The notes: a model not told the origin generated them from the sequence alone. A stretch of DNA of 50,388 bases from a bacterium (GCA_029934085.1 JAOZMY010000001.1:24031-74418), one strand, 5' to 3'. Positions 3,626 through 21,542 are shown, counted from the first letter of the stretch. A program made the numbers and translations.

Positions 3626-4177
3626 ATGGTTGATGTTATCGGCAGGAAGTTGCGGGAGCTACGACGAGCGAATCGCATGACGCTGAAGCAGGTGGCGAAG
3701 AAGGCGGGATGCACGGAATCTTATATCTCACAGCTTGAAAATGGGAATGCCAATCCTTCAATCGCAACTCTCAAGAAAATCGCGGCGGTTTTCAACGTTC
3801 AGATCATCGATTTTTTCATCGACCATGAAGAGGAAGCCCCGGTTGTAGTAAGAAAAAACGAGAGAATCGATATCGAATTTAAGGACGGGGGAAAAACCCA
3901 CATCCAATCTATGGTTAAAAACACGAAGAACAAGCGGATGGTTGCCTTTTATACCACCATTGATCCTGGGGGCGGTTCATCGGGGCTCTATTCCCATATT
4001 GGTGAGGAGTTTGGCCTGATCCTCTCGGGTGAAATGGAGTTGACGATAGAGGATAAGACATATCACTTGGAGGAAGGGGACAGCTTCTATTTCTCTTCGG
4101 CGCGTCCTCATGGCTTTTCGAATAAGGGTAAGAAAACGACGGTTGTCGCTTGGGTTGTCAGTCCGCCTACGTTTTAA
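3626..4177 (+). CDS. XRE-family HTH transcriptional regulator with C-terminal cupin domain
   Basis: This 183-aa protein has an N-terminal HTH_3 (LRELRRANRMTLKQVAKKAGCTESYISQLENGNANPSIATLKKIAAVF). It has a C-terminal cupin_2-like region (GEEFGLILSGEMELTIEDKTYHLEEGDSFYFSSARPHGF). Confidence 0.9.
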   Translation: MVDVIGRKLRELRRANRMTLKQVAKKAGCTESYISQLENGNANPSIATLKKIAAVFNVQIIDFFIDHEEEAPVVVRKNERIDIEFKDGGKTHIQSMVKNTKNKRMVAFYTTIDPGGGSSGLYSHIGEEFGLILSGEMELTIEDKTYHLEEGDSFYFSSARPHGFSNKGKKTTVVAWVVSPPTF

Positions 4178-4184
4178 GAATAAA

Positions 4185-5426
4185 ATGGAGTCGAGTGTGA
4201 AGAAGATCGCGTTTCTGGTGGGGCTTATTTTCTTGGTTGGATACCTTTCCCCGATTCCAGCCATCAGCGCCGACAAGATCAGTTTTGGGTTTGCCTTGCC
4301 ATTGACCGGTTCCCTCGCTGAAAGGGGGCGAAGGGCCCTCGATTCGTATAAATTGTGGGCGAAGAAGATGAATGCCGGGGGTGGAATCCTGATTGAAGGG
4401 AAACATTATCCGGTTGAACTTGTTTTTTATGACGATAAAAGCAATCCGGATTTGAGCGCTAGATTTTTTGAAAAGCTTGTAACGGTTGATAAGGTAGATT
4501 TACTGCTGGGTGGGATCGGAGCCCGACTTGTTTCGGCCGCAAGCGTCGTATCGGAAAAATACAAGTATCCGATGATCAGTGGAGAGGCGAACTCGGATTA
4601 CCTATTTGATCGAAACAACAGCTACTATTTTTCGACCTTGCCGAAAGTCTCCAAAGAGACCCGAGCGTGTGTCGATTTTTTGAAAAGGCTTAAAACCAAG
4701 CCAACCACTGTGGCGATCATCGGCTCTGATACTTCGCCATCTTCTCTGGTTTGTGAAGCCTTTAAGAAAGCCGTCGAGTCCTCTGGTCTCAAGATCGTCC
4801 ATTATGAACTCTTTCCCCTGTCGGTTAGCGACTACGGCACCACCCTTTCGAAAATCCAGGCGAAACACCCTGACATTCTGTTTGTGGGAAGCAGGGCGCT
4901 GAAATCGCTGAAGGGTATCGTCGAAGGTATGAAAAAAAATGGTTTCATGCCGAAAGCGGTTGTTCTGGGCGGCGGTTTGATGGTTCATGATCTCATGGCC
5001 ACGCTGGGGGAAGATAGTGACTATCTGTTTACCATGACAGAGTGGGTGTCGGAACTTCCTTATAAAGGCCCTGTGTTTGGAAGCGCCTCGGACTTTGACA
5101 AAGTGTATTATAAAGAGTACAAACGTCATTCTGAATACGTGGAAGCGGCGGTTGCCTCTGCGGCGGTGGTTCAGCAGTTGGCTTTGCAAAAGTTGGGTTC
5201 GGCACCGCCCTATGACGAAGCTGGACGTGAAGCTCTTATGAAGAAGCTTCACGATATTGATTTTGAAACCTTCTACGGGAAAGTCCGTTTTGGGAAAGAC
5301 GGTGCCAATTCGGCACATCCTTTAGTGATTATTCAAATCCGGGAAGGTAAGGTCGTTCCCGTTTACCCCGTGGAAGTGAAAAAAGCTGCCCCTGCCTATC
5401 CCGTGCCGTTGTGGGAAAAGCGTTAG
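4185..5426 (+). CDS. LivK-family ABC substrate-binding protein (second, divergent paralog)
   Basis: An ATG at 4185 gives MESSVKKIAFLVGLIFLVGYLSPIPAISA/DK, which is a signal peptide. The mature part is type I periplasmic binding fold-like (FALPLTGSLAERG..., VELVFYDDKSNPD). The ORF-track start at 4110 overlaps the regulator gene and adds an Arg-rich non-signal extension, so I prefer 4185. Confidence 0.8.
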   Translation: MESSVKKIAFLVGLIFLVGYLSPIPAISADKISFGFALPLTGSLAERGRRALDSYKLWAKKMNAGGGILIEGKHYPVELVFYDDKSNPDLSARFFEKLVTVDKVDLLLGGIGARLVSAASVVSEKYKYPMISGEANSDYLFDRNNSYYFSTLPKVSKETRACVDFLKRLKTKPTTVAIIGSDTSPSSLVCEAFKKAVESSGLKIVHYELFPLSVSDYGTTLSKIQAKHPDILFVGSRALKSLKGIVEGMKKNGFMPKAVVLGGGLMVHDLMATLGEDSDYLFTMTEWVSELPYKGPVFGSASDFDKVYYKEYKRHSEYVEAAVASAAVVQQLALQKLGSAPPYDEAGREALMKKLHDIDFETFYGKVRFGKDGANSAHPLVIIQIREGKVVPVYPVEVKKAAPAYPVPLWEKR

Positions 5427-5529
5427 AACGCTACCGAAGCAGCCTTTTATGGAGGCTGTGACCCATTCAGGGAGAAGCCCGGAGCAGAATATAAAAATGA
5501 CCTAATTGGTCATGCAAAAGGAGTCGAAA

Positions 5530-7464
5530 GTGCATTATCCGTCTATTTTCTCCGAAGGGAAAATAGGAACCCTGACCCTCAAGAATCGTATCATTATGGC
5601 ACCCGTGGACACGAATTTCGCCGATTATGAGGGAAAGGTTTCCGAGAAGATGCTCGCGTATTACGAGATGCGGGCCCGAGGCGGCGTGGGAATGATCATC
5701 GTGGAAAACAGCCAGGTGGAAGGGCCCCGCGGGAAACATACCGTCCGTCAGTTGTGTGTCTCAGATGACCGTTTCATCCCCGGTCTCAAACGTCTCGCCT
5801 TTGCCATTCATAAACACCAAATTCCCGCCATTCTCCAGCTTCATCACGCGGGACGGCAGACCACGCGGGAGTTTACCGGAGGGCTTCAGCCGGTAGCTCC
5901 ATCGGCCATTCCCTGTAAGCATCTCAAAGAAACACCAAGGGCCTTGATGCTGGACGAGATCGAGGAGATTGAAAACAGGTTTACCAAGGCGGCAATCAGA
6001 GCGAAGACAGCGGGGTTCGACGGGATTGAGCTACACGGCGCGCACGGTTATCTTATCGGTCAGTTCATGTCTCCCTATACCAATCATCGGGAAGACGCCT
6101 ATGGCGGAGATTTCGAAGGACGGATGCGTTTCCCTCTTCGTATCATCGAAAAGATACGAGCCGCCGTTGGAGAGGAATTTCCTATTCTTTTCCGATTGAG
6201 CGCCGATGAGTTCGTGGAAGGCGGTATCAAACTGGAAGAGGCGAAACGGATCGCGGTTCGCCTTGAGGAAGCGGGGATAGATGCCCTGCACGTTTCGGCT
6301 GGGATCTACGAGAGCCTCATGACCATCTTGGAGCCCATGAGTTACAAAGAGGGATGGCGAGTCTATCTCGCAAAGGAGATTAAAAAACTCGTCTCTGTCC
6401 CGGTGATCACGGTGGGAAACATCCGGTATCCCGACACGGTGGAAGAGATTCTTTCTAAGGGTGACGCGGATTTCGTGGCTCTCGGTCGCGCCCTCATCGC
6501 CGATCCCGAATGGCCTTTGAAGACGAAAGAAGGACGGATCAAGGAGATTCGTTACTGCATTTCTTGTAATGAAGGCTGCCTTGGCAATCGCCTTACCGAT
6601 TACATCGGCTGTTCCATCAATCCAGAAGTGGGGCGTGAAAACCGGTTGGGGAAAAAGAAGAAGCCGGTGACCCCGCGTCATGTCACCGTCGTAGGGGCGG
6701 GGCCCGCGGGGATTACGGCGGCCCTCCAGGCGGACAAGATGGGGCATCATGTTGTTCTGTTTGAGCGCAACCCGTGGATCGGCGGGCAGTTACGGCTCTT
6801 TGCCTCCATGCCGACAAAACACCGGATCAACGACCTGTTGAATTTCTTTGAGTACCAGCTCAAGAGCTCAAACGTGGAACTGAGGTTGGGAACGGAGTTC
6901 GACCCCCAAAACCCTAACACACCCCTCGATGTCGTTGTCATTGCCACGGGGTCAATCCCTTCCATTCCCATTCTCCCCGGGATCAAGGACGATCGGATTA
7001 TCACCCCGGTACAGTGTCTGGACGGTCAGTGCCCTAAAGGGAATGAGGATGTTCTCGTCGTCGGCGGGGGTGTGACGGGTTGTGAGCTCGCCCTTTTCCT
7101 CAAGTCTCTGGGGAACCGGGTCATCCTCATCGAAAAAGAGGATCGTCTCGCCGCGGATCTGGAGGAAATTTCCCGGATGGATCTTCTGAAACGGATGGCA
7201 AAGGAGAAACTCCAGGTTTTTCTCCGTATGTCACTTCGAGAGATTACCGAAGAAGGTGCGATCCTTGCGGATAGCGAAGGGAAGAAATTCATGGTGAAAC
7301 CGACAAAAATTGTCCTTGCCATGGGAAACCATGCCCAGGCGATCTTACGCCGCCGGTTGAAAGGGAAGGCCAACCGGTTGTTTGTGATTGGGGACGCAAA
7401 AGAGCCTCGCACGATTTACTATGCCATCCATGACGCCTATAAAGCGGTTCTTTCCATTACATAA
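5530..7464 (+). CDS. FadH / 2-enoate-reductase family FeS flavoprotein (OYE-like FMN domain, 4Fe-4S, FAD/NAD(P) domain)
   Basis: The OYE TIM-barrel motifs are present (LKNRIIMAPV, GFDGIELHGAHGYLIGQFMSP). The Cys cluster CISCNEGCLGNRLTDYIGC is typical of the 2,4-dienoyl-CoA reductase / enoate reductase / TMADH family. A Rossmann motif VTVVGAGPAGITAA follows. The likely start is GTG 5530, 6 nt after AAAGGAG; the ORF-track start is 5506. Confidence 0.85.
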   Translation: MHYPSIFSEGKIGTLTLKNRIIMAPVDTNFADYEGKVSEKMLAYYEMRARGGVGMIIVENSQVEGPRGKHTVRQLCVSDDRFIPGLKRLAFAIHKHQIPAILQLHHAGRQTTREFTGGLQPVAPSAIPCKHLKETPRALMLDEIEEIENRFTKAAIRAKTAGFDGIELHGAHGYLIGQFMSPYTNHREDAYGGDFEGRMRFPLRIIEKIRAAVGEEFPILFRLSADEFVEGGIKLEEAKRIAVRLEEAGIDALHVSAGIYESLMTILEPMSYKEGWRVYLAKEIKKLVSVPVITVGNIRYPDTVEEILSKGDADFVALGRALIADPEWPLKTKEGRIKEIRYCISCNEGCLGNRLTDYIGCSINPEVGRENRLGKKKKPVTPRHVTVVGAGPAGITAALQADKMGHHVVLFERNPWIGGQLRLFASMPTKHRINDLLNFFEYQLKSSNVELRLGTEFDPQNPNTPLDVVVIATGSIPSIPILPGIKDDRIITPVQCLDGQCPKGNEDVLVVGGGVTGCELALFLKSLGNRVILIEKEDRLAADLEEISRMDLLKRMAKEKLQVFLRMSLREITEEGAILADSEGKKFMVKPTKIVLAMGNHAQAILRRRLKGKANRLFVIGDAKEPRTIYYAIHDAYKAVLSIT

Positions 7465-7475
7465 GGGGTAAAGCG

Positions 7476-7976
7476 ATGGAAGAGAAATTGGGCGAAGAAA
7501 TCGTTGAGATCTCGGCTATGGTTAATGGGACCTCCGTTGTCCTACGAACGCCGGCCAACCGGACAATGCTCTCGATTCTACGGGAAGACCTTCACCTTAC
7601 GGGAGTCAAGGAGGGATGTGGAATCGGGGAATGTGGGGCCTGCACGGTGATTATGGACGGAAAGGTGGTCAATGCCTGCATGGTCCTGGCTCCCAAGATG
7701 GACGGGGCTACCATAACCACCATTGAAGGGTTGGGGGATGAAGAAAACCTCCATCCGTTACAAAAGGCCTTTATCGAGCATGGGGCTGTCCAATGCGGGT
7801 TTTGTACGCCGGGGATGATCCTTTCCGCCAAGGCGCTCTTGGACGAGAAACCCCATCCAACACGCCTGGAGATTCGTGAGGGGATTTCGGGAAATCTATG
7901 TCGTTGCACGGGGTATCAGCAGATTGTGGATGCCATTGAGTCGGTGGCCGAAGGCGGAATGGAGGAGGGAAGATGA
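7476..7976 (+). CDS. Xanthine dehydrogenase-family Mo-hydroxylase, 2x[2Fe-2S] small subunit
   Basis: This 166-aa protein has GCGIGECGACTV (plant-type 2Fe-2S). It also has QCGFCTPGMI...CRCTGY (second 2Fe-2S). Both are characteristic of CoxS/XdhC/NdhS-type subunits. Confidence 0.92.
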   Translation: MEEKLGEEIVEISAMVNGTSVVLRTPANRTMLSILREDLHLTGVKEGCGIGECGACTVIMDGKVVNACMVLAPKMDGATITTIEGLGDEENLHPLQKAFIEHGAVQCGFCTPGMILSAKALLDEKPHPTRLEIREGISGNLCRCTGYQQIVDAIESVAEGGMEEGR

Positions 7977-8851
7977 GCTATCCCAAGTTTCGTTACGCAG
8001 TGCCGAAGACGGTGCGAGATGCGGTTGAAATCCTGCACGCGGCAACAGAGAAAGGGGAGAAGGCGATTGTCTTGGCGGGGGGGACCGACCTGATGGTTCA
8101 GCTTAGGGAGAAATCCCTGGTTCCTGACTTGGTGGTGGATATCTCCAGGGTTACGTCACTTACAAAGATCGAACGGATGGGGAACGAAATACGCATAGGC
8201 CCCCTGGTGACCCATTCCATGCTGGCATCTTCGGACCTGATTCGAGAATACGTTGGGGTATTATCGGAAGCGGCGAGAACCGTTGGATCCCCTCAGATCA
8301 GAAACCTGGGGACCCTTGGAGGGAACATCGTAAACGCCTCCCCCGCGGCAGATACCATTCCAGCCCTTGTGATCCTTGATGCTCAGTTAATCCTAACGGG
8401 GCCGAAGGGGGATCGAACTCTCCCGATAACGGATTTTTTCGAGGGTCCTTACGAGACCGTTATCGAGGCGGATGAGCTTCTGACGGGTGTTATTGTTCCT
8501 CTGCCCCCTCCCTCTGGGCGGGCTATTTTCCTGAAATTGGCGCGGCGGAAGGCCCTGGCCATCGCGCGTATGAACCTTGCCTGTATGCTGTATTACAATC
8601 GGCAGAAGGAGGTTTTTGAGTGGGTCCGTCTCTGTGTAGGGTCTTCGACGCCACGTCCGGTTAGAATGACGGAGGCAGAGAAGATTTTAGAAGGGCAACC
8701 TTTTACGGATGTGGTTCTCCAGAAGGCGGGACAGGCGGCGGCGGAGCAGATGGTCGCCTTGAGTGGTCTTCGTTCTTCCACGGCGTACAAAAAACCCGTG
8801 GTGGGAGACCTCGTCATCCGCGCCGTCAAACTGGCGGTTGAAAAAGGGTAG
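7973..8851 (+). CDS. Xanthine dehydrogenase-family Mo-hydroxylase, FAD-binding medium subunit
   Basis: This 292-aa protein has LAGGTDLMVQL and GTLGGNIVNASPAADT motifs (FAD_binding_5 / CO_deh_flav_C). It shares an ATGA overlap with the upstream gene. Confidence 0.9.
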   Translation: MSYPKFRYAVPKTVRDAVEILHAATEKGEKAIVLAGGTDLMVQLREKSLVPDLVVDISRVTSLTKIERMGNEIRIGPLVTHSMLASSDLIREYVGVLSEAARTVGSPQIRNLGTLGGNIVNASPAADTIPALVILDAQLILTGPKGDRTLPITDFFEGPYETVIEADELLTGVIVPLPPPSGRAIFLKLARRKALAIARMNLACMLYYNRQKEVFEWVRLCVGSSTPRPVRMTEAEKILEGQPFTDVVLQKAGQAAAEQMVALSGLRSSTAYKKPVVGDLVIRAVKLAVEKG

Positions 8852-8860
8852 GGGGGTACG

Positions 8861-11137
8861 ATGATAACCAAGGTCGTTGGGAAACGGGTTGAGCGTGTCG
8901 GAATTCTTGACAAGGTTACGGGAAAGGCAAAATACGGTGCGGATCTCGAGATCCCGAATGCGCTAATCCTTAAGGTTTATCGTAGTCCCGTTCCTCACGG
9001 GATCGTTCGGAAGATAGATACCTCGGAGGCCGCTGGTGTCGATGGGGTTGTTAGGATCTTCACGGCAAAGGATATTCCAGGTGAGAACCTCTACGGCATC
9101 ATCAACAAGGACCAACCCGTCCTTACGGGGGAGAAAGTCCGTTTTGAAGGGGATCCAATTGTCCTGGTGGCCGCAGAGGATGAGGAGAGCGCGGATAGGG
9201 CCCTGGCCGCCCTACGAGTGGAAATCGATGAATTGCCGGCGGTTTTTGATCCCAACGAGGCCCTGAAACCGGAGGCCCCTTCCATCCATGAAAAGGGAAA
9301 CCTCCTCTTCGAGCGAAAGATCGTCAAGGGGGATGTGGAGAAAGGCTTTACCGCCTCGGATATCGTCATCGAGGAAACCTACGAGACGAATATGCTGGAA
9401 CACGCCTACATCGAACCCGAAGTGGGTGTGGCCTATAGGGACGAGGATGGATGTGTTGTCGTCTTGGTAACCACTCAAAACCCCCACTCCGATCATGCCC
9501 AGCTTGTTTCGATCTTGGGGGTGGAGCCGGAAAAGGTCCGTGTCATCCAAACGGAGACTGGTGGCGGATTTGGAGGAAAGCTTGATATTTCCGTCCAGCC
9601 CTTTCTTGCCCTGGCTGCCTACCATCTGGATCGGCCGGTCCGGATGGTTTACAGTCGAGAAGAATCTTTCCAGGCCACGGCGAAACGCCATCCTCTGAAG
9701 ATCCGAATGAAGACGGGGGCCACCCGGGACGGAAAACTCACGGCAATGAAAGCGGAGATCATCGCGGACACGGGGGCTTACGGCTCTTATGGGATCGCGG
9801 TGGCAACGCGAGCGGCCGTCCACGCGACGGGGCCCTACGAGGTCCCAAATGTTTATGTGGAAAGCAAGGCGGTCTATACCAACAATAACTGGTCGGGGGC
9901 CATGCGGGGGTTTGGAGTGCCTCAAATCGCCGTTGCCCACGAGTCTCAGATGGACAAGCTGGCGGAAAGCCTCGGTTTTGACCCGATTACCTTCCGTATG
10001 ATGAATGCCTTCACGACAGGGTCCGTTACCCCGACGGGCCAGACGCTGAACGCGAGTGTGGGTATTCGGGAGACCTTGAAGAAGATTCGTCCGTATTACG
10101 AGCAATTACTCCGTGAGGCTGATGCGACGCAGCTTTCGGGCCTCACCGGCATGAAATACGGAGTGGGTGTTGCCTCCATGTGGTATGGGATAGGAAATAC
10201 CGGACATCCCAACCCCTCCAGCGCCCAGATCGAGGTGGACCACGAAGGAAATGTGACCCTTTTCACGGGTGCGGCAGACATCGGACAGGGATCGGATACG
10301 GTATTGGTGCAGATTGCGGCGGAAACCCTTGGCCTCCCCTTCGATAAAATTCACCTGGTTCGGGCCGATACAACCCTGACCACGGACGCCGGCGCCACTT
10401 CCGCCTCCCGCCAGACATATATCTCCGGTAGGGCGGTTTATGAAGCAGCCCTTGAAGTCAGAAAACAGCTTGTTGAAAGGGCGGCTAAGGTTTTCAAGGT
10501 TCCCGCGAACCTTATGGTGTGCGAGGGAGGTTTTTTCTTTCCTCAATATCGGGAATTCCAGAAATTATCCCTCACGGATATCATCCGGCGTAGTTTGGTA
10601 CCGGGGGAGGTAATCCGAGGAGAGGGATATTTCAACCCCGAAACAACCTCTCTCGATCCGGAAACGGGTCAAGGTGTTCCTTACACGACCTATGCCTTTG
10701 CGTCTCAGGTCAGCCTCGTGGAGGTGGACCTGGTCACGGGACAAGTTGGGGTCGTGAAGACGATCAGCGCACACGACGTAGGGAAGGCCGTCAATCCCGC
10801 CAATGTGGAAGGGCAGATCTTCAGCGGCGTTGCCATGGGGATCGGTATGGGGTTGTTCGAACAGTTCTATCCGAGAAAGACAAAGTCGCTCGATACGTAT
10901 TTGATTCCTACGGCCATGGATGTCCCGGAGATAACGCCGGTTATCGTGGAAGTTCCCGAGCCCACGGGTCCTTTTGGTGCTAAAGGGGTGGGAGAACCCG
11001 CCCTGATTCCCACGGCCCCCGCCATCCTGAATGCCATCCATCATGCGACGGGATGGTGGGTCAATCGAATTCCAGCGGATTTGGAAACTATAAGGGGATT
11101 AACATCGGCGGATGAGATGGAAAAATCTAAAAGCTGA
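8861..11137 (+). CDS. Xanthine dehydrogenase-family Mo-hydroxylase, molybdopterin-binding large subunit (single chain)
   Basis: This 758-aa protein has ETGGGFGGKLD and a C-terminal GAKGVGEPAL (catalytic Glu motif). It lacks the CODH active-site loop (AYxCSFR), so it is a hydroxylase rather than a CO dehydrogenase. Confidence 0.9.
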   Translation: MITKVVGKRVERVGILDKVTGKAKYGADLEIPNALILKVYRSPVPHGIVRKIDTSEAAGVDGVVRIFTAKDIPGENLYGIINKDQPVLTGEKVRFEGDPIVLVAAEDEESADRALAALRVEIDELPAVFDPNEALKPEAPSIHEKGNLLFERKIVKGDVEKGFTASDIVIEETYETNMLEHAYIEPEVGVAYRDEDGCVVVLVTTQNPHSDHAQLVSILGVEPEKVRVIQTETGGGFGGKLDISVQPFLALAAYHLDRPVRMVYSREESFQATAKRHPLKIRMKTGATRDGKLTAMKAEIIADTGAYGSYGIAVATRAAVHATGPYEVPNVYVESKAVYTNNNWSGAMRGFGVPQIAVAHESQMDKLAESLGFDPITFRMMNAFTTGSVTPTGQTLNASVGIRETLKKIRPYYEQLLREADATQLSGLTGMKYGVGVASMWYGIGNTGHPNPSSAQIEVDHEGNVTLFTGAADIGQGSDTVLVQIAAETLGLPFDKIHLVRADTTLTTDAGATSASRQTYISGRAVYEAALEVRKQLVERAAKVFKVPANLMVCEGGFFFPQYREFQKLSLTDIIRRSLVPGEVIRGEGYFNPETTSLDPETGQGVPYTTYAFASQVSLVEVDLVTGQVGVVKTISAHDVGKAVNPANVEGQIFSGVAMGIGMGLFEQFYPRKTKSLDTYLIPTAMDVPEITPVIVEVPEPTGPFGAKGVGEPALIPTAPAILNAIHHATGWWVNRIPADLETIRGLTSADEMEKSKS

Positions 11138-11213: not shown

Positions 11214-12365
11214 ATGGGAAAGGTGCTCATACGGAATATAGGTACGCTCGTGTCCGGAGACGTTTCGGATCCGATCCTGGATGCGGATTCAATTCTCATC
11301 TCGGATGGTAAGATCGAGGCCGTTGGGACGGATCTCTCCGCTGAAGGTGTGGACATCATCGTCGATGCCCAAGGGACGACCGTAACCCCGGGGTTGATGG
11401 ATTCTCACTGCCACGTGGTCATAGGAGACTTCACACCGAGGCAAAGGATGCTCGATTTCCTGGAGAGCGAGCTCCACGGGGGTGTCACCCAGGTCATATC
11501 AGCGGGTGAAGTTCACCTGCCCGGTCGTCCCAAGGATGCGGCCGGTGTCAAGGCGCTGGCGATCCTGGCGGCGAAGGCGTTCAACAATTTCAGGCCCGGC
11601 GGGATCAAGGTGCGCGGTGGTGGCTTGATTCTGGAACCTGGATTGACGGAAGAGGATTTTGCCGAAATGGCTCGGGAAGGGGTCAAAACCGTGGGCGAGA
11701 TCGGGCTTGGAAAGGTGAAAAAACCGGAAGAGGCGGCGCCGATGGTGGAGTGGGCCAAGAAGTATGGCATGACCGTGATGATGCACACGGGGGGAACCTC
11801 TATCCCGGGGAGTTCTGTGGTGACGGCGGACCAGGTCATTGCCACGAATCCCGACGTGGTCTCCCATCTTAACGGGGGACCAACCTCAGTATCTCCTGAA
11901 GAGGCCCGGAAGATCGTTATGGAAACGGACTTGGTCTACGAGATTTCACATTGCGGGAATCCGAAGATGATTTTGGAGGTTTGCCGACTTACCAGGGAAA
12001 AGAATGCCTATCACCGTGTGATTATTGGAAACGACCACCCCTCTGGGACCGGAGTCGTTCCCCTTGGGATCCTCAGGGTCTTGAATATGATTGCCTCCAT
12101 CGGAGAGATTCCGCCCGAAATCGCCGTCTGTATGGCAACGGGGAATACGGCCCGGGTTCATAAGCTGGATAGCGGTTTCATCGAGCCGGGGAAAGCTGCT
12201 GACCTTGTCATCATGGATGCCCCCATGGGCTCCGTGGGTGACGATGCCCTTTCTGCCCTCGAGGCTGGGGATATCCCGGGCGTGTCCAAAGTCATCGTGG
12301 ATGGGGAAATCAAGGTTCAGAAGAGCAGGAACACCCCGCCCCCCAAGCGTGCCGCAACGCTGTAA
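11214..12365 (+). CDS. Amidohydrolase-superfamily enzyme, enamidase-like (cyclic enamide/amide C-N hydrolase)
   Basis: This 383-aa protein has the N-terminal sandwich ILISDGKIEAVG. The metal motif is TVTPGLMDSHCHV (HxH). It also has HTGGTSIPGSS and SHLNGGPT. Its size and its position next to an Hnr-like FeS protein and a Mo-hydroxylase match enamidase of the nicotinate fermentation pathway. The family call is firm; the enamidase subfamily is an inference. Confidence 0.7.
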   Translation: MGKVLIRNIGTLVSGDVSDPILDADSILISDGKIEAVGTDLSAEGVDIIVDAQGTTVTPGLMDSHCHVVIGDFTPRQRMLDFLESELHGGVTQVISAGEVHLPGRPKDAAGVKALAILAAKAFNNFRPGGIKVRGGGLILEPGLTEEDFAEMAREGVKTVGEIGLGKVKKPEEAAPMVEWAKKYGMTVMMHTGGTSIPGSSVVTADQVIATNPDVVSHLNGGPTSVSPEEARKIVMETDLVYEISHCGNPKMILEVCRLTREKNAYHRVIIGNDHPSGTGVVPLGILRVLNMIASIGEIPPEIAVCMATGNTARVHKLDSGFIEPGKAADLVIMDAPMGSVGDDALSALEAGDIPGVSKVIVDGEIKVQKSRNTPPPKRAATL

Positions 12366-12383: not shown

Positions 12384-13913
12384 GTGAAGGTCAACCCGGA
12401 AAAGTGTAAAGGGTGTGGATTCTGCGTTGAGGTGTGTCCCCTGGAGCTTGTTTCTCTCCAGGAAAAGGTTGCATCCATCTCCACGGGATGTGTTCAGTGT
12501 CAAGCGTGTGTGAAGGTTTGTCCCGCGGGGGCTATCGATAGTGATACCAGTTTTCCGGAGGGAACGATTCAATGTGATGCCTGTCCTATTGGGTGTCACA
12601 TCCCTCCTGGAAAGACGGGCGCATGTAGGCGGTACATCAACAGGGATGGCGAGTTGGTAAGGACAACTCTCCTTCATACCTATCAGGATGTCGAAGGGCT
12701 TCTCAAACCTCTTTGGGCAGAGGAGATCCAGTCTCCTCTCATTACGGGGATCGGGGCTGGAACGACCTATCCGGACTACCGTCCCGCCCCCTTTATCGTA
12801 AAAGGCGAGGCCGGGGGTGTGGATGTGGTTACGGCTGTGACGGAGGCCCCTCTCAGTTACAGTGGCGTCAAGGTAAAGATCGACACGGATGAACCAATCG
12901 GAGATGAGGGGGCGACGGTTTATCACGGGCGCCACAAGGTGGGACATGTCACTACGGAAGAATACGGGTCAAAGATGCTCTCTCTTGGGGGTGCCAATCT
13001 TCTGACTGGGAAGGATGGGTTTGTCGTTGCCCGGGTGGTTTCAGATATTGCCAACAAAAGGGAAGTGACACTCAAGGTTAAAGATGGCGCGGAGCTGGTC
13101 CTCAAGGTGGGGAATCCTCCGGTCATCGACGGCCGGGTCATCGAAAAGATGCGTGTGGGGTGTGGCAGCGCCTCTATGGGGTTATTCGCCCCGCATTTTC
13201 GCCATGCCGCCGACGAGGTGATCGTTATCGACTCCCATGTAACGGGTGTCTTTACCGAGCACACGGCGGGGAGATATCTCGGGATTCCTTTTAGCGGGGT
13301 CCAGTTGAAGTTCAAGAAGAGTACACCCGGGAGATATTTTGGGGATCACGGCAAGGGCTGGGGTGGAACCAGTATCGAGGATCCCGTCTCTCTGATTAAA
13401 GGTATCGATCCTGACCATGGCAGGGTTGGGATGACCATCCTCTTTACCGAGACCACCGGTCAAAAATCCAAGCTGGTTCGTTGGAAGGGGAACTTGGATT
13501 TTGAAGAAATTCCTTTGACGGAAGGGGCCCGAAATGCCGTGGAGCAGATTCGGAAAACGAGCCAAAACTCCCGTGTCTCGGCGGTCTACGTGGGCGGCTG
13601 CGGCGGAAGCGCCCGTGTCAGTGTGGTACTCTATCCTGTGAAACTCACCGAAGCCGTTCATGCGCGGAAGGTGAAACTGACAGTAGGAGGCGCAACCCCC
13701 TTCATCTTTCCAGGGGGCGGGATTACCTTCATGGTTGACGTGGAAGAGGTTAAAACGGGTGCTTTTACATGGGTTCCAACACCGGCAACCGTTGCCCCTC
13801 TCGAGTTTACCATGACATTGCGGGACTACGAGGGGATGGGAGGCTATACGGAAGCACTCATTGATTGGGATGATTTGATGAAGTGGCTTTCCGAACGGAA
13901 GGAAGGGGAATAG
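12384..13913 (+). CDS. FeS protein with N-terminal 2x[4Fe-4S] ferredoxin domain, 6-hydroxynicotinate reductase (Hnr)-like
   Basis: GTG start. CKGCGFCVEVCP and CVQCQACVKVCP are two 4Fe-4S motifs. An extra Cys cluster follows (CDACPIGCH...GAC). About 400 aa follow that carry no motif I can name. The architecture, size and context are consistent with Hnr (covalent flavin, one 2Fe-2S, two 4Fe-4S) as described for Eubacterium barkeri. Confidence 0.55.
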   Translation: MKVNPEKCKGCGFCVEVCPLELVSLQEKVASISTGCVQCQACVKVCPAGAIDSDTSFPEGTIQCDACPIGCHIPPGKTGACRRYINRDGELVRTTLLHTYQDVEGLLKPLWAEEIQSPLITGIGAGTTYPDYRPAPFIVKGEAGGVDVVTAVTEAPLSYSGVKVKIDTDEPIGDEGATVYHGRHKVGHVTTEEYGSKMLSLGGANLLTGKDGFVVARVVSDIANKREVTLKVKDGAELVLKVGNPPVIDGRVIEKMRVGCGSASMGLFAPHFRHAADEVIVIDSHVTGVFTEHTAGRYLGIPFSGVQLKFKKSTPGRYFGDHGKGWGGTSIEDPVSLIKGIDPDHGRVGMTILFTETTGQKSKLVRWKGNLDFEEIPLTEGARNAVEQIRKTSQNSRVSAVYVGGCGGSARVSVVLYPVKLTEAVHARKVKLTVGGATPFIFPGGGITFMVDVEEVKTGAFTWVPTPATVAPLEFTMTLRDYEGMGGYTEALIDWDDLMKWLSERKEGE

Positions 13914-13927
13914 CTGGGGTTGTGTCG

Positions 13928-14821
13928 ATGATACGCGAGCGAACCTGTGTTTCTTCCAATGATGTGTCCAGAGACATTCCCGAAAGAATCTTCTCTGCCG
14001 ATGTTCGAGTTTCCTATGGCCCCATGGAGATCGGAATTCAGGTGAACGGAACGGAAAGGGGTGTGCGGAAATCCTGTGAAGATGTAGATAAAAAGGCCCG
14101 CCTGCTTCTGGATGACGTTAAAAGGTTTCATCCCCTGCTGAAGTTGCGGGGTGAGGAGTTGAGGGTAAAATCACGCTGGCCACGAGTGGTTCAGAGGATG
14201 GTGGAAGCCGTTCAAGTTGTTTCAGCGGAAACATTGACTCCCATGGCTGCCGTGGCAGGGGCCATTTCCGATGAACTACTCTTGGATTTGCAAGACGCGG
14301 CGGATGGTTTTTTAACAAAGGTCCTCGTGAACAACGGAGGGGACATGGCCCTTTTTTCACCCGATGAACCAGTGCGTGTGGGAATCCGAGGCGCGGTGCC
14401 TGAAGGAATGTCCATGCGTGAAGTGCTGATTTCGGAGGTGGATGAGCCGTATGGCCTTGCGACGAGTGGGTGGCGTGGAAGGAGCTTTAGTCAGGGTATC
14501 GCCGATGCCGTGGTCGTGGCGGCCGACTCGGGGGCTTTGGCAGACGCGGCGGCCACGTTTGTCGGGAACTACGTGAAGGAGGAAGGGCACGGAAGGGTTC
14601 GGCGCCGAAAGGCTTCAGAACTTGATCCCATGACGGATATTCCAAACCTCATGGTTACCGTTTCCTGTGATCAGCTAAGTGAAGATGAAAAACTGACTGC
14701 TCTTGAAAACGGTGGTGCCATGGCGTCTTCCCTCTTGGGTAGGGGGATTATATGGGGCGCGGGGATCTATCTGCAGGGAGAGTCGATGGAATTGTCAAAA
14801 GGTGTCATAAACTTTAAATAA
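13928..14821 (+). CDS. UPF0280-family protein (ApbE-like fold)
   Basis: It carries the motif LATSGWRGRSFSQGIADAVVVAADSGALADAAATFVGN. This resembles the UPF0280 signature and echoes the ATSG motif of ApbE flavin transferases. The start is ambiguous: GTG 13883 in the ORF track overlaps the upstream gene, and GTG 13922 and ATG 13928 follow GGAAGGGGAA. Confidence 0.6.
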   Translation: MIRERTCVSSNDVSRDIPERIFSADVRVSYGPMEIGIQVNGTERGVRKSCEDVDKKARLLLDDVKRFHPLLKLRGEELRVKSRWPRVVQRMVEAVQVVSAETLTPMAAVAGAISDELLLDLQDAADGFLTKVLVNNGGDMALFSPDEPVRVGIRGAVPEGMSMREVLISEVDEPYGLATSGWRGRSFSQGIADAVVVAADSGALADAAATFVGNYVKEEGHGRVRRRKASELDPMTDIPNLMVTVSCDQLSEDEKLTALENGGAMASSLLGRGIIWGAGIYLQGESMELSKGVINFK

Positions 14822-14834
14822 TTAAAGGAGGTGC

Positions 14835-15416
14835 ATGATGGAGATTCGAAAGATGGTAACGGTCGTGGACGAGATTCGTGAAGAGATGGGACAGAAGGTG
14901 GATCCTCCGCATCGAAAGGCGGCGGCCATCGCTGTGATCAAGAATCCTTTTGCGGGGAAATATCAGGAGGATCTTTCCGATTTGATGGATATCGGAGAAC
15001 AACTGGGAAGTATGCTGGGAGAACTTGCCGTAAAGGCCCTCGGGATTCCCAAAGAGAAATCCGAAAGCTATGGGAAGGGGGCCATTGTTGGATTGAATGG
15101 TGAGCTTGAGCACGCTGCCGCCATCCTTCATCCCAAGCTGGGCAAACCCTTCCGGGAAGCCCTTGGGGGCGGGAAGGCGATCATCCCTTCCGCCAAGAAA
15201 ATGGGTGGTCCGGGAACCCCCCTCGATGTTCCGCTACACTTCAAGGATGCCGCTTTCGTGCGGTCTCATTTCGATGCCATGGAGATCCGTGTTCAGGATG
15301 CACCACGGGATGACGAGATTGTGGTTGCCTTGGTAGTGACCGATTCCGGCCGTCCTTTGGCCAGGGTCGGTGGCCTGAAAAAAGAAGAGGCAAAATGTGA
15401 GGATGGCCTGAGATAA
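14835..15416 (+). CDS. 'Amino acid synthesis' family protein (PF06684/DUF1185-like), function unknown
   Basis: This 193-aa protein has MEIRKMVTVVDEIREE...AAAIAVIKNPFAG...YGKGAIVGLNGELEHAAAILHPKLG...DAPRDDEIVVALVVTDSGRPLARVGG. This matches my recollection of the family consensus. An AAGGAGG RBS is present. Confidence 0.75.
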   Translation: MMEIRKMVTVVDEIREEMGQKVDPPHRKAAAIAVIKNPFAGKYQEDLSDLMDIGEQLGSMLGELAVKALGIPKEKSESYGKGAIVGLNGELEHAAAILHPKLGKPFREALGGGKAIIPSAKKMGGPGTPLDVPLHFKDAAFVRSHFDAMEIRVQDAPRDDEIVVALVVTDSGRPLARVGGLKKEEAKCEDGLR

Positions 15417-15423
15417 CAATAGA

Positions 15424-15463
15424 GCTCCCGGGTAAGTTTACTTCTCCGGGAGCCTATATTTTT
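15424..15463 (+). terminator. Rho-independent terminator closing the catabolic operon
   Basis: The stem is GCTCCCGG (15424-15431) paired with CCGGGAGC (15446-15453). The loop is 14 nt and is followed by CTATATTTTTA. It lies 8 nt after the stop codon of the last gene. Confidence 0.85.
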
Positions 15464-15560: not shown

Positions 15561-15588
15561 TTGACATTTTAGGAATAAGGTTTATAAT
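15561..15588 (+). promoter_or_regulatory. Near-consensus sigma70 promoter (TTGACA-16 nt-TATAAT) for the EF-G/birA/coaX unit
   Basis: TTGACA lies at 15561-15566 and TATAAT at 15583-15588. An A/T-rich UP-like tract precedes them (15455-15560). Confidence 0.7.
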
Positions 15589-15629
15589 ATCCAAAACTAA
15601 TTGGTTTCATATTGAGATACGGACCAGAA

Positions 15630-17660
15630 ATGAAGAAGGGCCTGAAAAACATACGAAATATCGGGATCATTGCCCATATCGACGCGGGGAAAACTACCGT
15701 GTCGGAGAGGATGCTTTATTATACGGGTAAGATTCACAAAATGGGCGAGGTCCACGATGGGGATACGGCGTTGGACTGGATGGCCCAGGAGCAGGAACGG
15801 GGGATTACCATTACCTCCGCTGTCACAAACTTTTTTTGGCGGGATTGCGAGATCCACCTTATCGATACCCCGGGGCACGTGGATTTTACCATTGAAGTCG
15901 AGCGTTCCCTGAGGGTCTTGGATGGGGCCGTTGTCGTGTTTTGCGGGGTGGGAGGGGTGGAACCCCAATCCGAGACGGTGTGGCACCAAGCGGATAAATA
16001 TCGAGTCCCTCGCATTGCCTTTATCAATAAGATGGACAGGATAGGGGCCGATTTCGATCACGTTATTTCCATGATGGAGGAGAGGTTTAATACGCCACCT
16101 GTGATTTTGCAGAGGCCCATTGGAGTTGAAAGCGCCTTCAAAGGTGTGGTGGACCTGGTGAGGCAAAAGGCGATTGTCTGGTCGGAGGACGGCCTGGGTA
16201 ACGAGTACGAGGTGGCGGAAATCCCTCAGGACATGAAAGAGGAAGTGGCTGCTTACCGTGAGAAGCTTCTTGAGGCGGTAGCCGAGGCGGACGATGAACT
16301 GATGGAGCGTTATTTGGAAGAAGGGGACCTCCCTGAAGGGGATATCCTTAAGGCCCTCCGAAAACGAACCCTCAACATGGAAATCGTTCCCGTCCTTTGT
16401 GGCTCTGCTCTGAAAAATAAGGGTGTCCAACCTTTGATGGATGCTATCGTGGATTTTCTGCCTTCTCCTTTAGAGGTTCCCCCCATTTCAGGGGTGGATC
16501 CCGAGACGGGGGAGACCATTACCCGGCCGCCGGACATCAAGGCGCCATTTTCGGCCCTCGTTTTTAAGGTCATGATGGATCAGGGGAGAAAGTTGTGTTT
16601 TGTCCGTGTCTATTCGGGACAGGTCAAAGTGGGGGAAGAACTCTATAATCTGAATCTGAGGACAAAGGAAAAGGTTGCCCGTATCCTGGAGATCCATGCC
16701 AACCATCGTAAGCGAATCGATACGGCAAAGGCGGGTGATATTGTCGGTGTCATTGGGCTGAAGAGGTCTTCCACGGGGAACACCCTTTGCGACGCCTCAG
16801 ACCCTATTTTACTGGAGCCCATCGACAGCTATGAACCCGTGATTTCCGTGGCCATCGAGACGGTCTCCAATCAGGAGGCGGAGCGGGTTCAGGAAGTCCT
16901 GACCCAGATCATGGAGGAAGATCCCACGTTTCAGGTCAAAACGGACGAGGAAACGGGTCAAGTGGTCATTTCGGGTATGGGGGAGCTCCACTTGAACGTG
17001 GTGACCACCCGATTGATGGAGGATTATGGCCTGAAGGTTCACGTGGGACGTCCCCAGGTCGTTTATCGAGAGACGATTACCCGATCTGTCAAGTCTACGG
17101 GGGTTTTTGACCGTGAAATGGCAGGCATGCATGGGTTTGCCACCGTTACGATAGAGATGAGCCCCGCGGAGAGGGGAACGGGAAATCACTATACGGACAG
17201 GGAGGTAGAAGAAATTCTCCCGCCGGAATATCGTCAGGTGGTCCGAGAAGGGATTATGGATGCCTTGTCTTTCGGCCCCCTTTCCGGGAGCCCGATGATC
17301 GATGTTGATGTAATTTTGAAAGATGTAAAATGGGAGGAAAACGATCATGCGATTTCATCGCTGCGTATTGCAGCCGCAACAGCCGTAAGGGAGGGAACTC
17401 AGCGGGCGGAGATCATTCTTCTGGAGCCCATCATGGAGCTTGACATCCTCACGCCGGAGGAGTTCGTCGGAGAAGTTATTTCAGATATTAACAGCCGGAA
17501 AGGTGAAGTTCACAGCCTTGAAAACAAAGGGAAAATTACACTGATCCAGGCGCGCGTGCCCTTGAAGCAACTTTTTGGATATTCAACGACGTTACGTTCG
17601 CTAACCCAAGGGAGAGGAAACTTTACCATGCGCTATTTCCGGCATGACCAAATCACATAG
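15630..17660 (+). CDS. fusA: Elongation factor G paralog (standalone, outside an rpsL-rpsG-fusA-tuf context)
   Basis: Motifs include [42 protein letters not shown] and NKMDR, and domains II-V are present. The ATG at 15630 gives the usual 8 residues before RNIGI; the ORF-track TTG at 15612 has no SD. Confidence 0.9.
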
Positions 17661-20477: not shown

Positions 20478-21542
20478 TCAAAAATAGGTTACGTGTTTTT
20501 TGAACCTTTTCTTCCACTGGACGATTGGTTCCAGGGGTTTGGAGGCGAAGATGCGGTGTTCCGCATCCATCAAAACAACCTGATATTCGGGATGGGAGAC
20601 GGCCCATTGAATGGCTTTTTCTCTTCCCATGACGAAGAGAGCCGTGGCGAGGGCGTCGGCGTCCATCGTGTTTTTGGCTAAAACGGAGACACTCCGGAGG
20701 CCACGGGCGGGGAGACCAGTTCTGGGGTTGAGGATGTGGTGATACCGGACGTGGCCCTTGATGAAGTAGCGTTCGTAATCCCCTGAAGTGGCGATGGCAC
20801 GGTCCGAGAGGGAAACGATGGCGATGACGGCCTTGGGGTCGTCCGGGTCCTGGATGCCGATGTGCCAAAGACGTTGGAGAGGGGCCCCTGACGTGTAGAG
20901 ATCTCCCCCCGCGTTGACAATGAAGTTGTGAATTCCTTTGGCGTTGAGGAGTGCAGATGCCCTATCCACGGCAAAGCCCTTGGCGATTCCACCAAGATCG
21001 AGAGACATGCCTTTAATTTTCAGAGAGATGCGGTGGGTAATCGGATCGCATCTCACCTTGTCAATCCCGGTGTTTTTCAGCGCATTTGCGATGGCTAACT
21101 CCGGGGGGAGATGAGGGTTTTTGGTATCCCATCCCCAGAGCTTGATAAGTGGTCCCATCGTGATGTCGAAGGTCCCGTTCGTTTCTTTGCCGATGAGAAG
21201 CCCCTCGTAGATAACGCGACAGGTTAGGGGGGAGATAACCAAGGGGCCTTCCCCTGCGTGAGCATTGATTCGAGACAGTTCGCTACCCGGCCGATCGGGA
21301 TTCATGGCGCCGTCCACCGATTTTATCGCGTCGAAGGCCTGTTTGATAACCTTTTCGGAAGAAGAGGAGCCAACCCAGGTGATTTCGACGACCGTGCCCA
21401 TGATCCACTGGCTTTCGTGCAGAATCTGGGGGCGATCGCAGGCGGTTAGAGAGAGGAGACACAGGATCGCCAGGAAACTGAACCACAGATGTTTTGGGTG
21501 AAAGGACACAAGATGGGAAGGAAAATGAGAAATCGTTTTCAT
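20478..21542 (-). CDS. apbE: FAD:protein FMN transferase (ApbE family) lipoprotein
   Basis: The ATG at 21542 gives MKTISHF...LAILCLLSLTAC with a lipobox (LTAC). ApbE motifs are present: IMGTVVEI, LDLGGIAKGFAVD, ATSGDYERYF. The ORF-track start at 21668 would overlap the upstream gene. Confidence 0.85.
   Translation of the reverse strand: MKTISHFPSHLVSFHPKHLWFSFLAILCLLSLTACDRPQILHESQWIMGTVVEITWVGSSSSEKVIKQAFDAIKSVDGAMNPDRPGSELSRINAHAGEGPLVISPLTCRVIYEGLLIGKETNGTFDITMGPLIKLWGWDTKNPHLPPELAIANALKNTGIDKVRCDPITHRISLKIKGMSLDLGGIAKGFAVDRASALLNAKGIHNFIVNAGGDLYTSGAPLQRLWHIGIQDPDDPKAVIAIVSLSDRAIATSGDYERYFIKGHVRYHHILNPRTGLPARGLRSVSVLAKNTMDADALATALFVMGREKAIQWAVSHPEYQVVLMDAEHRIFASKPLEPIVQWKKRFKKHVTYF

Follow-up and report, generated by a model that had tools for sequence, protein, structure and literature searches.

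What do two poorly characterised genes contribute when they directly follow a putative 6-hydroxynicotinate reductase gene? The question is posed by a 50,388-nucleotide stretch of bacterial DNA (GCA_029934085.1, JAOZMY010000001.1:24031-74418; the whole stretch is called the window below), in which the reductase gene (hnr) is followed on the same strand by a gene of the UPF0280 family (upf) and by one of the PF06684 'amino acid synthesis' family (aas). A sequence-only reading of the window had proposed that the UPF0280 protein installs a covalent flavin on the reductase, and that the PF06684 protein is an additional subunit, a chaperone or an enzyme acting on the ring-opened product. By sequence comparison, an operon for the nicotinate 'upper pathway' ends at its 3' side with these three genes; it is made up of a molybdenum hydroxylase (ndh), an enamidase (ena), hnr, UPF0280 and PF06684. 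The UPF0280 protein is very probably tied to Hnr functionally in some way. A role as the cytoplasmic flavin transferase that matures Hnr, as suggested by sequence and predicted structure, is plausible, with a little under an even chance of being right, and would not be of the canonical type.

Hnr starts with a ferredoxin domain for two [4Fe-4S] clusters (residues 1-55, Fer4 Pfam matches), followed by a four-cysteine motif for a third cluster, C64/C67/C71/C81, which is invariant in an alignment of 81 Hnr sequences from which all conservation data on this protein are taken. The protein has more than 7800 homologues, many of which are named 6-hydroxynicotinate reductase at their source, and is 50% identical over its full length to the copy in Eubacterium aggregans. 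This identity, the source names and neighbouring genes matching the structures 3hrd and 2vun together support orthology with the Hnr of Eubacterium barkeri. Because the neighbours match 2vun and 3hrd and the homologues carry the reductase name, the block is assigned to the upper nicotinate pathway. Judged from its sequence, Hnr is an Fe-S flavoenzyme predicted to convert 6-hydroxynicotinate to 6-oxo-1,4,5,6-tetrahydronicotinate. The E. barkeri enzyme reportedly contains one [2Fe-2S] cluster, two [4Fe-4S] clusters and a flavin in covalent linkage, and is said to reduce 6-hydroxynicotinate in a ferredoxin-dependent manner; the cysteine motifs of Hnr agree with that cluster count.

The association of hnr with UPF0280 is not peculiar to this locus. 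A scan with an Hnr profile, taking one genome per species, yields at least 592 loci, 80 of which were analysed, with UPF0280 being found by profile; a reverse set consists of 63 metagenome loci that were retrieved through UPF0280 motifs and have more than 400 nucleotides (nt) of upstream sequence. UPF0280 is present in 74 of the 80 Hnr-retrieved loci, and two of the six others end at a contig edge (74/78 assessable loci); hnr lies directly upstream of UPF0280 in 58 of the 63 loci of the reverse set. The linkage is reciprocal at 92-95%, so the lack of co-occurrence beyond this locus, which the sequence-only reading had named as an outcome that would refute its proposal, is clearly not what is found. 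The Hnr set covers Thermodesulfobacteriota, Clostridia (including E. aggregans and Acetobacterium bakii), Alpha- and Betaproteobacteria and one actinomycete metagenome-assembled genome. Between the stop of hnr and the start of upf, the median gap over 133 junctions is -4 nt, and 116 of these gaps are at most 30 nt, a spacing that, on sequence, is a signature of translational coupling. About 150 independent loci share this arrangement, more than chance would produce.

Gene order in these clusters is far from fixed: ndh can precede or follow hnr, ena can be a direct neighbour or lie at a distance of up to about 9 kb, strands flip, and an oxoprolinase-like pair is sometimes found near hnr instead of ena. 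The hnr-upf junction survives this extensive reshuffling between phyla. Together with the reciprocal linkage, its survival speaks against the idea that the neighbourhood is kept only by block inheritance or co-transfer and that UPF0280 and PF06684 play no part in nicotinate catabolism. In favour of that idea, neither protein has been tied experimentally to the pathway, and mirror-tree correlations can come from co-transfer alone; it is nevertheless highly improbable. In the mirror-tree comparison, partial correlations controlled for the molybdenum (Mo) subunit of Ndh are highest for hnr-upf (0.55), followed by hnr-aas (0.35), aas-ena (0.24) and hnr-ena (0.14); being a crude distance-matrix test, it lends weak support to a hnr-upf link.

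The UPF0280 translation contains YGLATSGWRGRSFSQGIADAVVVAADSGALADAAATF. The motif series LATSG...GIADAV...ADAAAT, to which the sequence-only reading had drawn attention, is present in it, as is ATSGDYERYF in the canonical ApbE encoded elsewhere in the window. Membership of UPF0280 (PF27030, COG2122) follows from several matches: NCBIfam PRK04334.1-2 (223 bits, under the equivalog cut-off of 290), PDB entry 2o34 (DVU1097; E 1.7e-9), and a 100%-identical database protein (P0121) that, like all 120 homologues listed, carries PF27030 'AbpE_bact'. The JGI label for the listed homologues is 'ApbE superfamily uncharacterized protein (UPF0280 family)'. The family is large, with 3036 representative clusters at E values up to 1e-3 (at least 3000 clusters at 50% identity).

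Sequence and structure comparisons both relate UPF0280 to ApbE. An hhalign comparison with the window ApbE gives a probability of 88% (E 3e-6) and pairs VNNGGD with VNAGGD, ATSG with ATSG, and ADAAAT with ADALAT (UPF0280 first in each pair). The AlphaFold2 model of UPF0280, with a predicted local distance difference test score (pLDDT) of 92, retrieves 2o34 in a Foldseek search of the PDB and then exclusively ApbE/Ftp/FmnB structures (14 chains, E 4e-5 to 7e-4, probability at least 0.99); no other fold family appears at E <1. The predicted model thus has the ApbE fold that the sequence-only reading had named for this family. In the ApbE catalytic centre only Ser241, His257 and Asp285 (Vibrio cholerae numbering) are conserved, His257 being the proposed general base (Fan and Fraaije 2025 review). 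UPF0280 keeps S182 of ATSG (equivalent to Ser241) and D208 of ADAAAT (equivalent to Asp285), as well as T212, and the Ser, Asp and Thr of these motifs are invariant in 36 diverse UPF0280 sequences. In ApbE, this Ser and the Asp/Thr motif line the pyrophosphate/Mg2+ site for flavin adenine dinucleotide (FAD). Although the window protein does not reach the ApbE gathering score, relatives in its clade exceed the Pfam ApbE cut-off of 25.6 bits (P0142, 35.6 bits; the E. aggregans copy, 27.9 bits). On sequence and model together, UPF0280 is a sister family inside the ApbE superfamily and not ApbE in the strict sense.

These features suggest a mechanism. UPF0280 would be an ApbE-superfamily protein of the cytoplasm that serves Hnr specifically and is co-translated with it. 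With its ATSG serine and the Asp/Thr of ADAAAT it would hold a Mg2+-dinucleotide, FAD being the most likely one, and would move a flavin moiety onto Hnr, giving rise to the covalent flavin reported for the E. barkeri enzyme. A non-canonical acceptor is proposed because Hnr lacks the ApbE acceptor motif; the loop T121-x-x-G-A-G-T127 is a guess for the site. The proposal is plausible in that all relatives of UPF0280 with a characterised function are flavin transferases and the metal/pyrophosphate residues are invariant. It also draws on the close attachment of the gene to a reductase that reportedly carries a covalent flavin yet has no flavin-binding fold. Its cellular location is also plausible: the UPF0280 translation has no signal peptide, which predicts a cytoplasmic protein, whereas the window ApbE is extracytoplasmic. 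Soluble fumarate reductases (Klebsiella, trypanosomatids) are known to have ApbEs of their own, either cytoplasmic or fused.

The canonical ApbE of the window is not a likely substitute. It begins with a lipoprotein signal peptide (MKTISHF...LLSLTAC), and because it is a lipoprotein it would be separated from Hnr by the membrane. The acceptor motif D-x-x-[ST]-G-A-[ST] is absent from all window open reading frames (ORFs) of at least 100 aa, so the client of this ApbE is encoded elsewhere. The apbE gene itself is flanked by genes for a Na/Ca exchanger and an epimerase.

Several findings weigh against a flavin transferase role. UPF0280 lacks the ApbE insert of about 17 residues (RYHHILNPRTG) that bears the catalytic histidine, so the full triad is not present; nor does the window protein have any Pfam-A match in the local library, even at E 10. 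The acceptor motif occurs in none of the 81 Hnr sequences, which also lack any [ST]GA[ST], and it is absent from all the other operon proteins; any modification of Hnr by UPF0280 would therefore concern a different kind of site. In about 5% of Hnr loci, no UPF0280 gene lies within 10 kb. Four loci with ample flanking sequence (L013, L037, L050 and L061) contain neither UPF0280 nor ApbE within that distance; the ORFs 3' of their hnr genes encode unrelated products, namely Tpt1, NAPRTase, glycosyltransferases and a binding protein, and Hnr copies without a neighbouring UPF0280 show no difference at the conserved Ser/Thr/His/Cys positions. Most covalent flavins are 8-alpha links that form autocatalytically (Fan and Fraaije 2025 review). 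Members of the DVU1097 type, in Desulfovibrionaceae, occur without Hnr and stand alone in variable contexts, so UPF0280 as a family is not intrinsically linked to Hnr. Finally, translational coupling suits a stoichiometric subunit and a maturase equally well. The idea of UPF0280 as the flavin transferase of Hnr has thus gained from the genomic linkage, the ApbE-like fold and the retained Ser, Asp and Thr, and has lost ground through the missing histidine insert, the missing acceptor motif and the loci that do without the gene. Substitution of a canonical ApbE for an absent UPF0280 was considered and rejected, no such gene being present in any of 160 loci. Hnr-UPF0280 fusions were likewise not found among the listed homologues, and the 150 top family representatives are all 237-422 aa long.

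Some of the same observations would suit a stoichiometric partner of Hnr, that is, a structural or flavin-/nucleotide-binding subunit or an assembly chaperone that uses the ApbE-like scaffold without catalysis. The stop-start overlap of hnr and upf suggests equimolar synthesis, the two genes show the strongest co-evolution signal of the module, the catalytic histidine has been lost, and Hnr has neither an acceptor motif nor a flavin-binding fold of its own. However, invariance of the Ser, Asp and Thr of the pyrophosphate/Mg2+ site would be unexpected in a dead scaffold, and UPF0280 evolves faster than the other proteins of the module (mean pairwise distance 0.62), which is unusual for a core subunit. 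In addition, the cofactors that E. barkeri Hnr is said to contain are all explained by the cysteine motifs of Hnr itself. Such a partnership is unlikely on this balance, but deserves serious consideration.

Alternatively, UPF0280 could act on a small molecule, as an FAD pyrophosphatase in cofactor supply or as an enzyme for a nicotinate-derived intermediate, and modify no protein. There is a precedent in the ApbE-family protein 4xdr (Treponema Ftp), described as a bifunctional flavin mononucleotide (FMN) transferase and FAD pyrophosphatase; moreover, UPF0280 keeps the metal/pyrophosphate motifs while the features that concern a protein substrate, the histidine and the acceptor motif, are missing, and the solitary DVU1097-type relatives would fit. 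Yet Ndh, Hnr and Ena already account for the three known steps that lead from nicotinate to 2-formylglutarate, which need no dinucleotide chemistry, and upf strictly adjoins hnr rather than ena or ndh and stays with hnr on rearrangement. A small-molecule role is accordingly improbable, and flavin transfer to Hnr is the reading pursued here.

If a flavin is transferred, the structure of Hnr offers a candidate site. The AlphaFold2 model of Hnr (pLDDT 87) matches the PDB in Foldseek only through its ferredoxin domain; the core of about 430 aa finds no match, and neither a flavin-binding Pfam domain nor a recognisable flavin-binding fold is detected in the protein. A relation of the core to the T-protein family was rejected, since the two hints that point to the same family (Pfam GCV_T_C, E 0.004; Foldseek 1wsr, probability 0.06) are too weak to use. 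Invariant elements of the core are the glycine-rich loops T121-x-x-G-A-G-T127, G-C260-G-S262-A, G-x-G-W-G-G-T329, G-G-S409-x-R and P-G-G-G-I, together with H285 and H293. The loop 121-130 (TGIGAGTTYP; window positions 12744-12773) is invariant or nearly so and has the lowest confidence in the model, with a block mean pLDDT of 58 compared with 86-89 for its neighbours. This would agree with a loop whose ordering requires a cofactor or a modification, and makes it a candidate cofactor or modification site in the model. A wider proposal, put forward tentatively and with rather more doubt than confidence, is that UPF0280 (PF27030, COG2122) represents a second, cytoplasmic, histidine-less branch of protein flavin transferases with an acceptor-site rule of its own, and that its Hnr-linked clade flavinylates a reductase whose core of about 430 residues has a fold unseen in solved structures, possibly at the GAGT loop.

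Hnr itself varies at its N-terminus. Proteobacterial copies (L037-L080, for example L067 9965-11422; also L170 6986-8422) have no ferredoxin domain and begin at the four-cysteine motif, C64-x2-C67-x3-C71...C81 (CxxCPxxC...GAC). In Bradyrhizobium-type loci, a divergently transcribed 2Fe-2S (xdhS-like) gene lies directly 5' of hnr instead. These features hint that the Hnr of aerobes uses a different electron donor.

The third gene product belongs to PF06684 (AA_synth, DUF1185), with a Pfam score of 254 bits against a cut-off of 27 and similarity to PDB entries 2qtp (SPO0826; E 5e-76) and 3byq (BB2672; E 5e-39). SPO0826 is a close orthologue of the window protein. The structural-genomics paper on 2qtp and 3byq describes a hexamer with a chorismate-mutase-like fold and infers an involvement in amino-acid metabolism from branched-chain amino-acid ATP-binding cassette (ABC) transporter genes that neighbour SPO0826 and BB2672. 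Because such transporter genes belong to the nicotinate module in hnr loci, the 'amino acid synthesis' label is probably an annotation artefact, and the family name misleading. The aas product is the most conserved of five module proteins, with a mean pairwise distance of 0.36 (ena 0.44, hnr 0.48, Mo subunit 0.51, and upf as given above).

Identities of PF06684 proteins to the window protein are bimodal, with type A at 58-85% and type B, common in Proteobacteria, at 40-55%. Of 103 type-A copies, 89 come after upf or after a type-B copy and 12 adjoin ena; where ena lies apart from hnr, 10 of 26 copies adjoin ena. Type B follows upf in 34 of 37 cases. These position statistics rule out an exclusive tie of PF06684 to either the enamidase or Hnr. 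Many proteobacterial loci carry a tandem of type B and then type A after upf, at about 12.3-13.6 kb (L040, L042, L043, L052, L054, L055, L059, L062, L064, L069, L073 and others), and where the cluster is split (L045, L077), type B remains beside hnr-upf and type A accompanies the enamidase gene. The presence of two paralogues suggests hetero-oligomers or two distinct roles.

PF06684 would stand outside the flavinylation step, as a conserved hexameric helper or enzyme that handles the reactive enamine or aldehyde product of ring opening. Because it sometimes travels with the enamidase instead of Hnr, it more probably acts on the ring-opened product; by analogy with homologous systems, and with low confidence, that substrate would be the enamine/aldehyde intermediate. 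In the catabolism of trigonelline (N-methylnicotinate), the succinate-semialdehyde dehydrogenase step follows the hydrolysis of an aminomethylene-dicarboxylate, a chemical parallel to the enamidase product. The PF06684 homologue TgnF has been reported, in a secondary source, to stimulate this dehydrogenase step, and the same source places another homologue, HcdD, in a hydroxycoumarin operon. TgnF and HcdD thus occur in operons for opening N- or O-heterocycles; no defined catalytic activity is attached to PF06684/DUF1185 proteins.

The competing view, that PF06684 is a partner of Hnr/UPF0280 (an extra subunit, electron-transfer adaptor or chaperone) rather than an enzyme acting after ring opening, draws on the predominance of positions directly 3' of upf or of a second PF06684 copy in both types. 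It also draws on a partial correlation that is higher for hnr-aas than for aas-ena, and on a Pleomorphomonas plasmid (pSM30-1) on which hnr-upf-aas persists with no enamidase or ndh gene nearby. It is countered by E. aggregans, in which the gene follows ena about 7 kb away from hnr-upf, and by the copies that travel with a separate ena. TgnF and HcdD belong to catabolic operons without Hnr; PF06684 proteins also have no cofactor-binding motif, and their crystal structures contain no bound cofactor as far as reported. A partnership with Hnr is therefore rather doubtful. Among the three options of the sequence-only reading, the enzyme acting on the ring-opened product is favoured by the Eubacterium position beside the enamidase gene, and the subunit and the chaperone have become less attractive.

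On pSM30-1 (L171, 6971-13843), the genes after hnr-upf-aas are a hydantoinase/oxoprolinase-like A/B pair, which carries the annotation acetophenone carboxylase gamma and delta, and nicR. There, an ATP-dependent lactamase may replace the enamidase in ring opening.

The three genes are adjacent and tightly packed (Table 1), much as the sequence-only reading had described them with its 8-14 nt gaps: the distance is 8 or 14 nt from the hnr stop to the UPF0280 start, and 13 or 16 nt from UPF0280 to PF06684, depending on the start codon. The downstream ATG of each pair (13928 and 14838) is backed by a syntenic relative (L172), and AAGGAGG lies just 5' of the PF06684 start. The hairpin behind PF06684 folds better than each of 200 shuffled sequences. 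The hairpin and, after it, a sigma-70-like promoter for the next gene mark the end of the operon-like block, with hnr, UPF0280 and PF06684 as the last genes of their transcription unit. That next gene, of the EF-G family, comes directly after the nicotinate block, and the order aas, EF-G, birA-like, coaX, epimerase and ApbE is also kept in the relative GCA_964556045.1. 'Triad', the earlier label, holds for three genes that do lie side by side, but they are part of a larger, known nicotinate module, and in Eubacterium the PF06684 gene stands beside the enamidase gene.

Table 1. Features of the nicotinate block and its flanks, in positions of the window.
Feature	Position	Strand	Remarks
PuuR-like helix-turn-helix/cupin regulator	3626-4177	+	Pfam, NCBIfam
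Peripla_BP_6 binding protein	4110-5426	+	Pfam, NCBIfam
OYE+Pyr_redox flavo-Fe-S enzyme, FadH/BaiCD/bilirubin-reductase-like	5506-7464	+	652 aa; Pfam, NCBIfam
Nicotinate dehydrogenase-like molybdenum hydroxylase (ndh)	7476..11137	+	three subunits; Pfam, NCBIfam matches
ndh 2Fe-2S subunit	7476-7976	+	
ndh FAD subunit	7973-8851	+	
ndh molybdopterin subunit, fused NdhL+NdhM	8861-11137	+	single 758-aa protein
Enamidase (ena) orthologue	11214..12365	+	PDB 2vun (E. barkeri enamidase), E 3.6e-151, full length; 18 nt 5' of hnr
hnr	12384..13913	+	start GTG 12384; TAG stop 13911-13913; 509 aa; 6-hydroxynicotinate reductase homologue
UPF0280 (upf)	13922 or 13928..14821	+	GTG 13922 (299 aa) or ATG 13928 (297 aa); TAA 14819-14821
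PF06684 (aas)	14835 or 14838..15416	+	ATG 14835 (193 aa) or ATG 14838 (192 aa)
Terminator-like hairpin and T-rich tail	15419..15457	+	-22.8 kcal/mol, z-score -5.4
Sigma-70-like promoter	15561-15588		12/12 match; TTGACA-16-TATAAT; 3' of hairpin
EF-G family gene with preceding promoter-like site	15561-17660	+	gene product 682 aa
Canonical ApbE	20478-21542	-	PF02424, 299 bits

Upstream of hnr, the genes encode the other enzymes of the upper pathway. That pathway is known from E. barkeri (Alhapel et al. 2006, as cited in PMC3511419 and PMC7356986) and, in the outline given by these citing papers, leads from nicotinate through 6-hydroxynicotinate and 6-oxo-1,4,5,6-tetrahydronicotinate to 2-formylglutarate and ammonia. 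The structure 2vun represents the enamidase, which opens the ring of 6-oxo-1,4,5,6-tetrahydronicotinate to give 2-formylglutarate and NH3 (PMC7356986). In the PDB, the Mo subunit is matched best by 3hrd_A (E 1e-125) and 3hrd_B (E 4e-76), which are the two molybdopterin chains of nicotinate dehydrogenase from E. barkeri; NdhL and NdhM are separate chains in 3hrd and separate genes in the E. aggregans locus (L034), and are fused in the window. The OYE-like gene 5' of ndh is not conserved across other hnr loci, with weak matches only in L057, L061 and L072; its product could handle a later intermediate or a related substrate in the source lineage.

The association of hnr, UPF0280 and PF06684 is itself not new: two genes of unknown function were noticed in the nicotinate module in 2012 by Shettigar et al. 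(PMC3511419), and RefSeq names these 'UPF0280 family protein' and 'amino acid synthesis family protein'. The cluster is therefore of a known kind, and what is plausibly new is UPF0280 as the flavin-installing enzyme of Hnr. No paper proposing this role was found, and neither the 2025 ApbE review nor the 2021 eLife survey mentions UPF0280 or Hnr. If the proposal is wrong, the locus is an ordinary, previously described nicotinate catabolic cluster. If it is right, a large orphan family of bacteria and archaea would acquire a function, flavinylation by enzymes would no longer be confined to the canonical ApbE motif and would reach into cytoplasmic catabolism, and it would become clear how Hnr can hold a flavin without a recognisable flavin-binding domain. 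UPF0280 would then also be the missing accessory gene for producing active Hnr heterologously; Hnr, an oxygen-sensitive ene-reductase for pyridone rings, is of interest for the biocatalysis of N-heterocycles. The PF06684 family, for its part, is pointed by the analysis towards the handling of ring-opened enamine/aldehyde intermediates.

Among known systems, the nicotinate fermentation cluster of E. barkeri is one of the closest, its first three enzymes (Ndh, Hnr and Ena) being orthologous to those of the window. The locus of the related E. aggregans has the order hnr-upf-hgd-ndhFSLM-transporter-ena-aas. Compared with the Eubacterium cluster, the window block has the fused NdhL/NdhM and the OYE/FadH-like gene, places aas after upf instead of after ena, and lacks hgd and the later fermentation genes. 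The module of Shettigar et al. (PMC3511419) is the same as that of the window, with the first three steps, an ABC transporter and the two unknown proteins, for which that paper proposes no function. Proteobacterial loci differ in having an Hnr without the N-terminal 2x[4Fe-4S] domain that the window protein possesses, and frequently two PF06684 paralogues in place of the single copy of the window.

For UPF0280, the best match in both sequence and structure is DVU1097 (2o34) and the wider UPF0280/COG2122/PF27030 family, which is likewise uncharacterised. DVU1097-type proteins are about 247 aa long and have CGSS in place of the ATSG of the window protein, whereas the Hnr-linked clade is marked by the signatures TPMAAVAG and G-x-ATSG-[WF]-[RG]-GR. 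ApbE/Ftp/FmnB proteins (PF02424) share with UPF0280 the fold, the NxGGD, ATSG and ADAxxT motifs and the equivalents of Ser241 and Asp285. In contrast to them, UPF0280 is shorter (about 297 aa), has a different N-terminal half, and lacks a lipobox or signal peptide and the histidine insert. The ApbEs of soluble fumarate reductases show by precedent that a flavin transferase can work in the cytoplasm for a single soluble reductase, but they are bona fide PF02424 proteins acting on the canonical motif, unlike UPF0280 and Hnr. In genomic position, there is a parallel with the apbE genes of nqr and rnf operons, in that UPF0280 lies beside the flavoprotein presumed to be its client.

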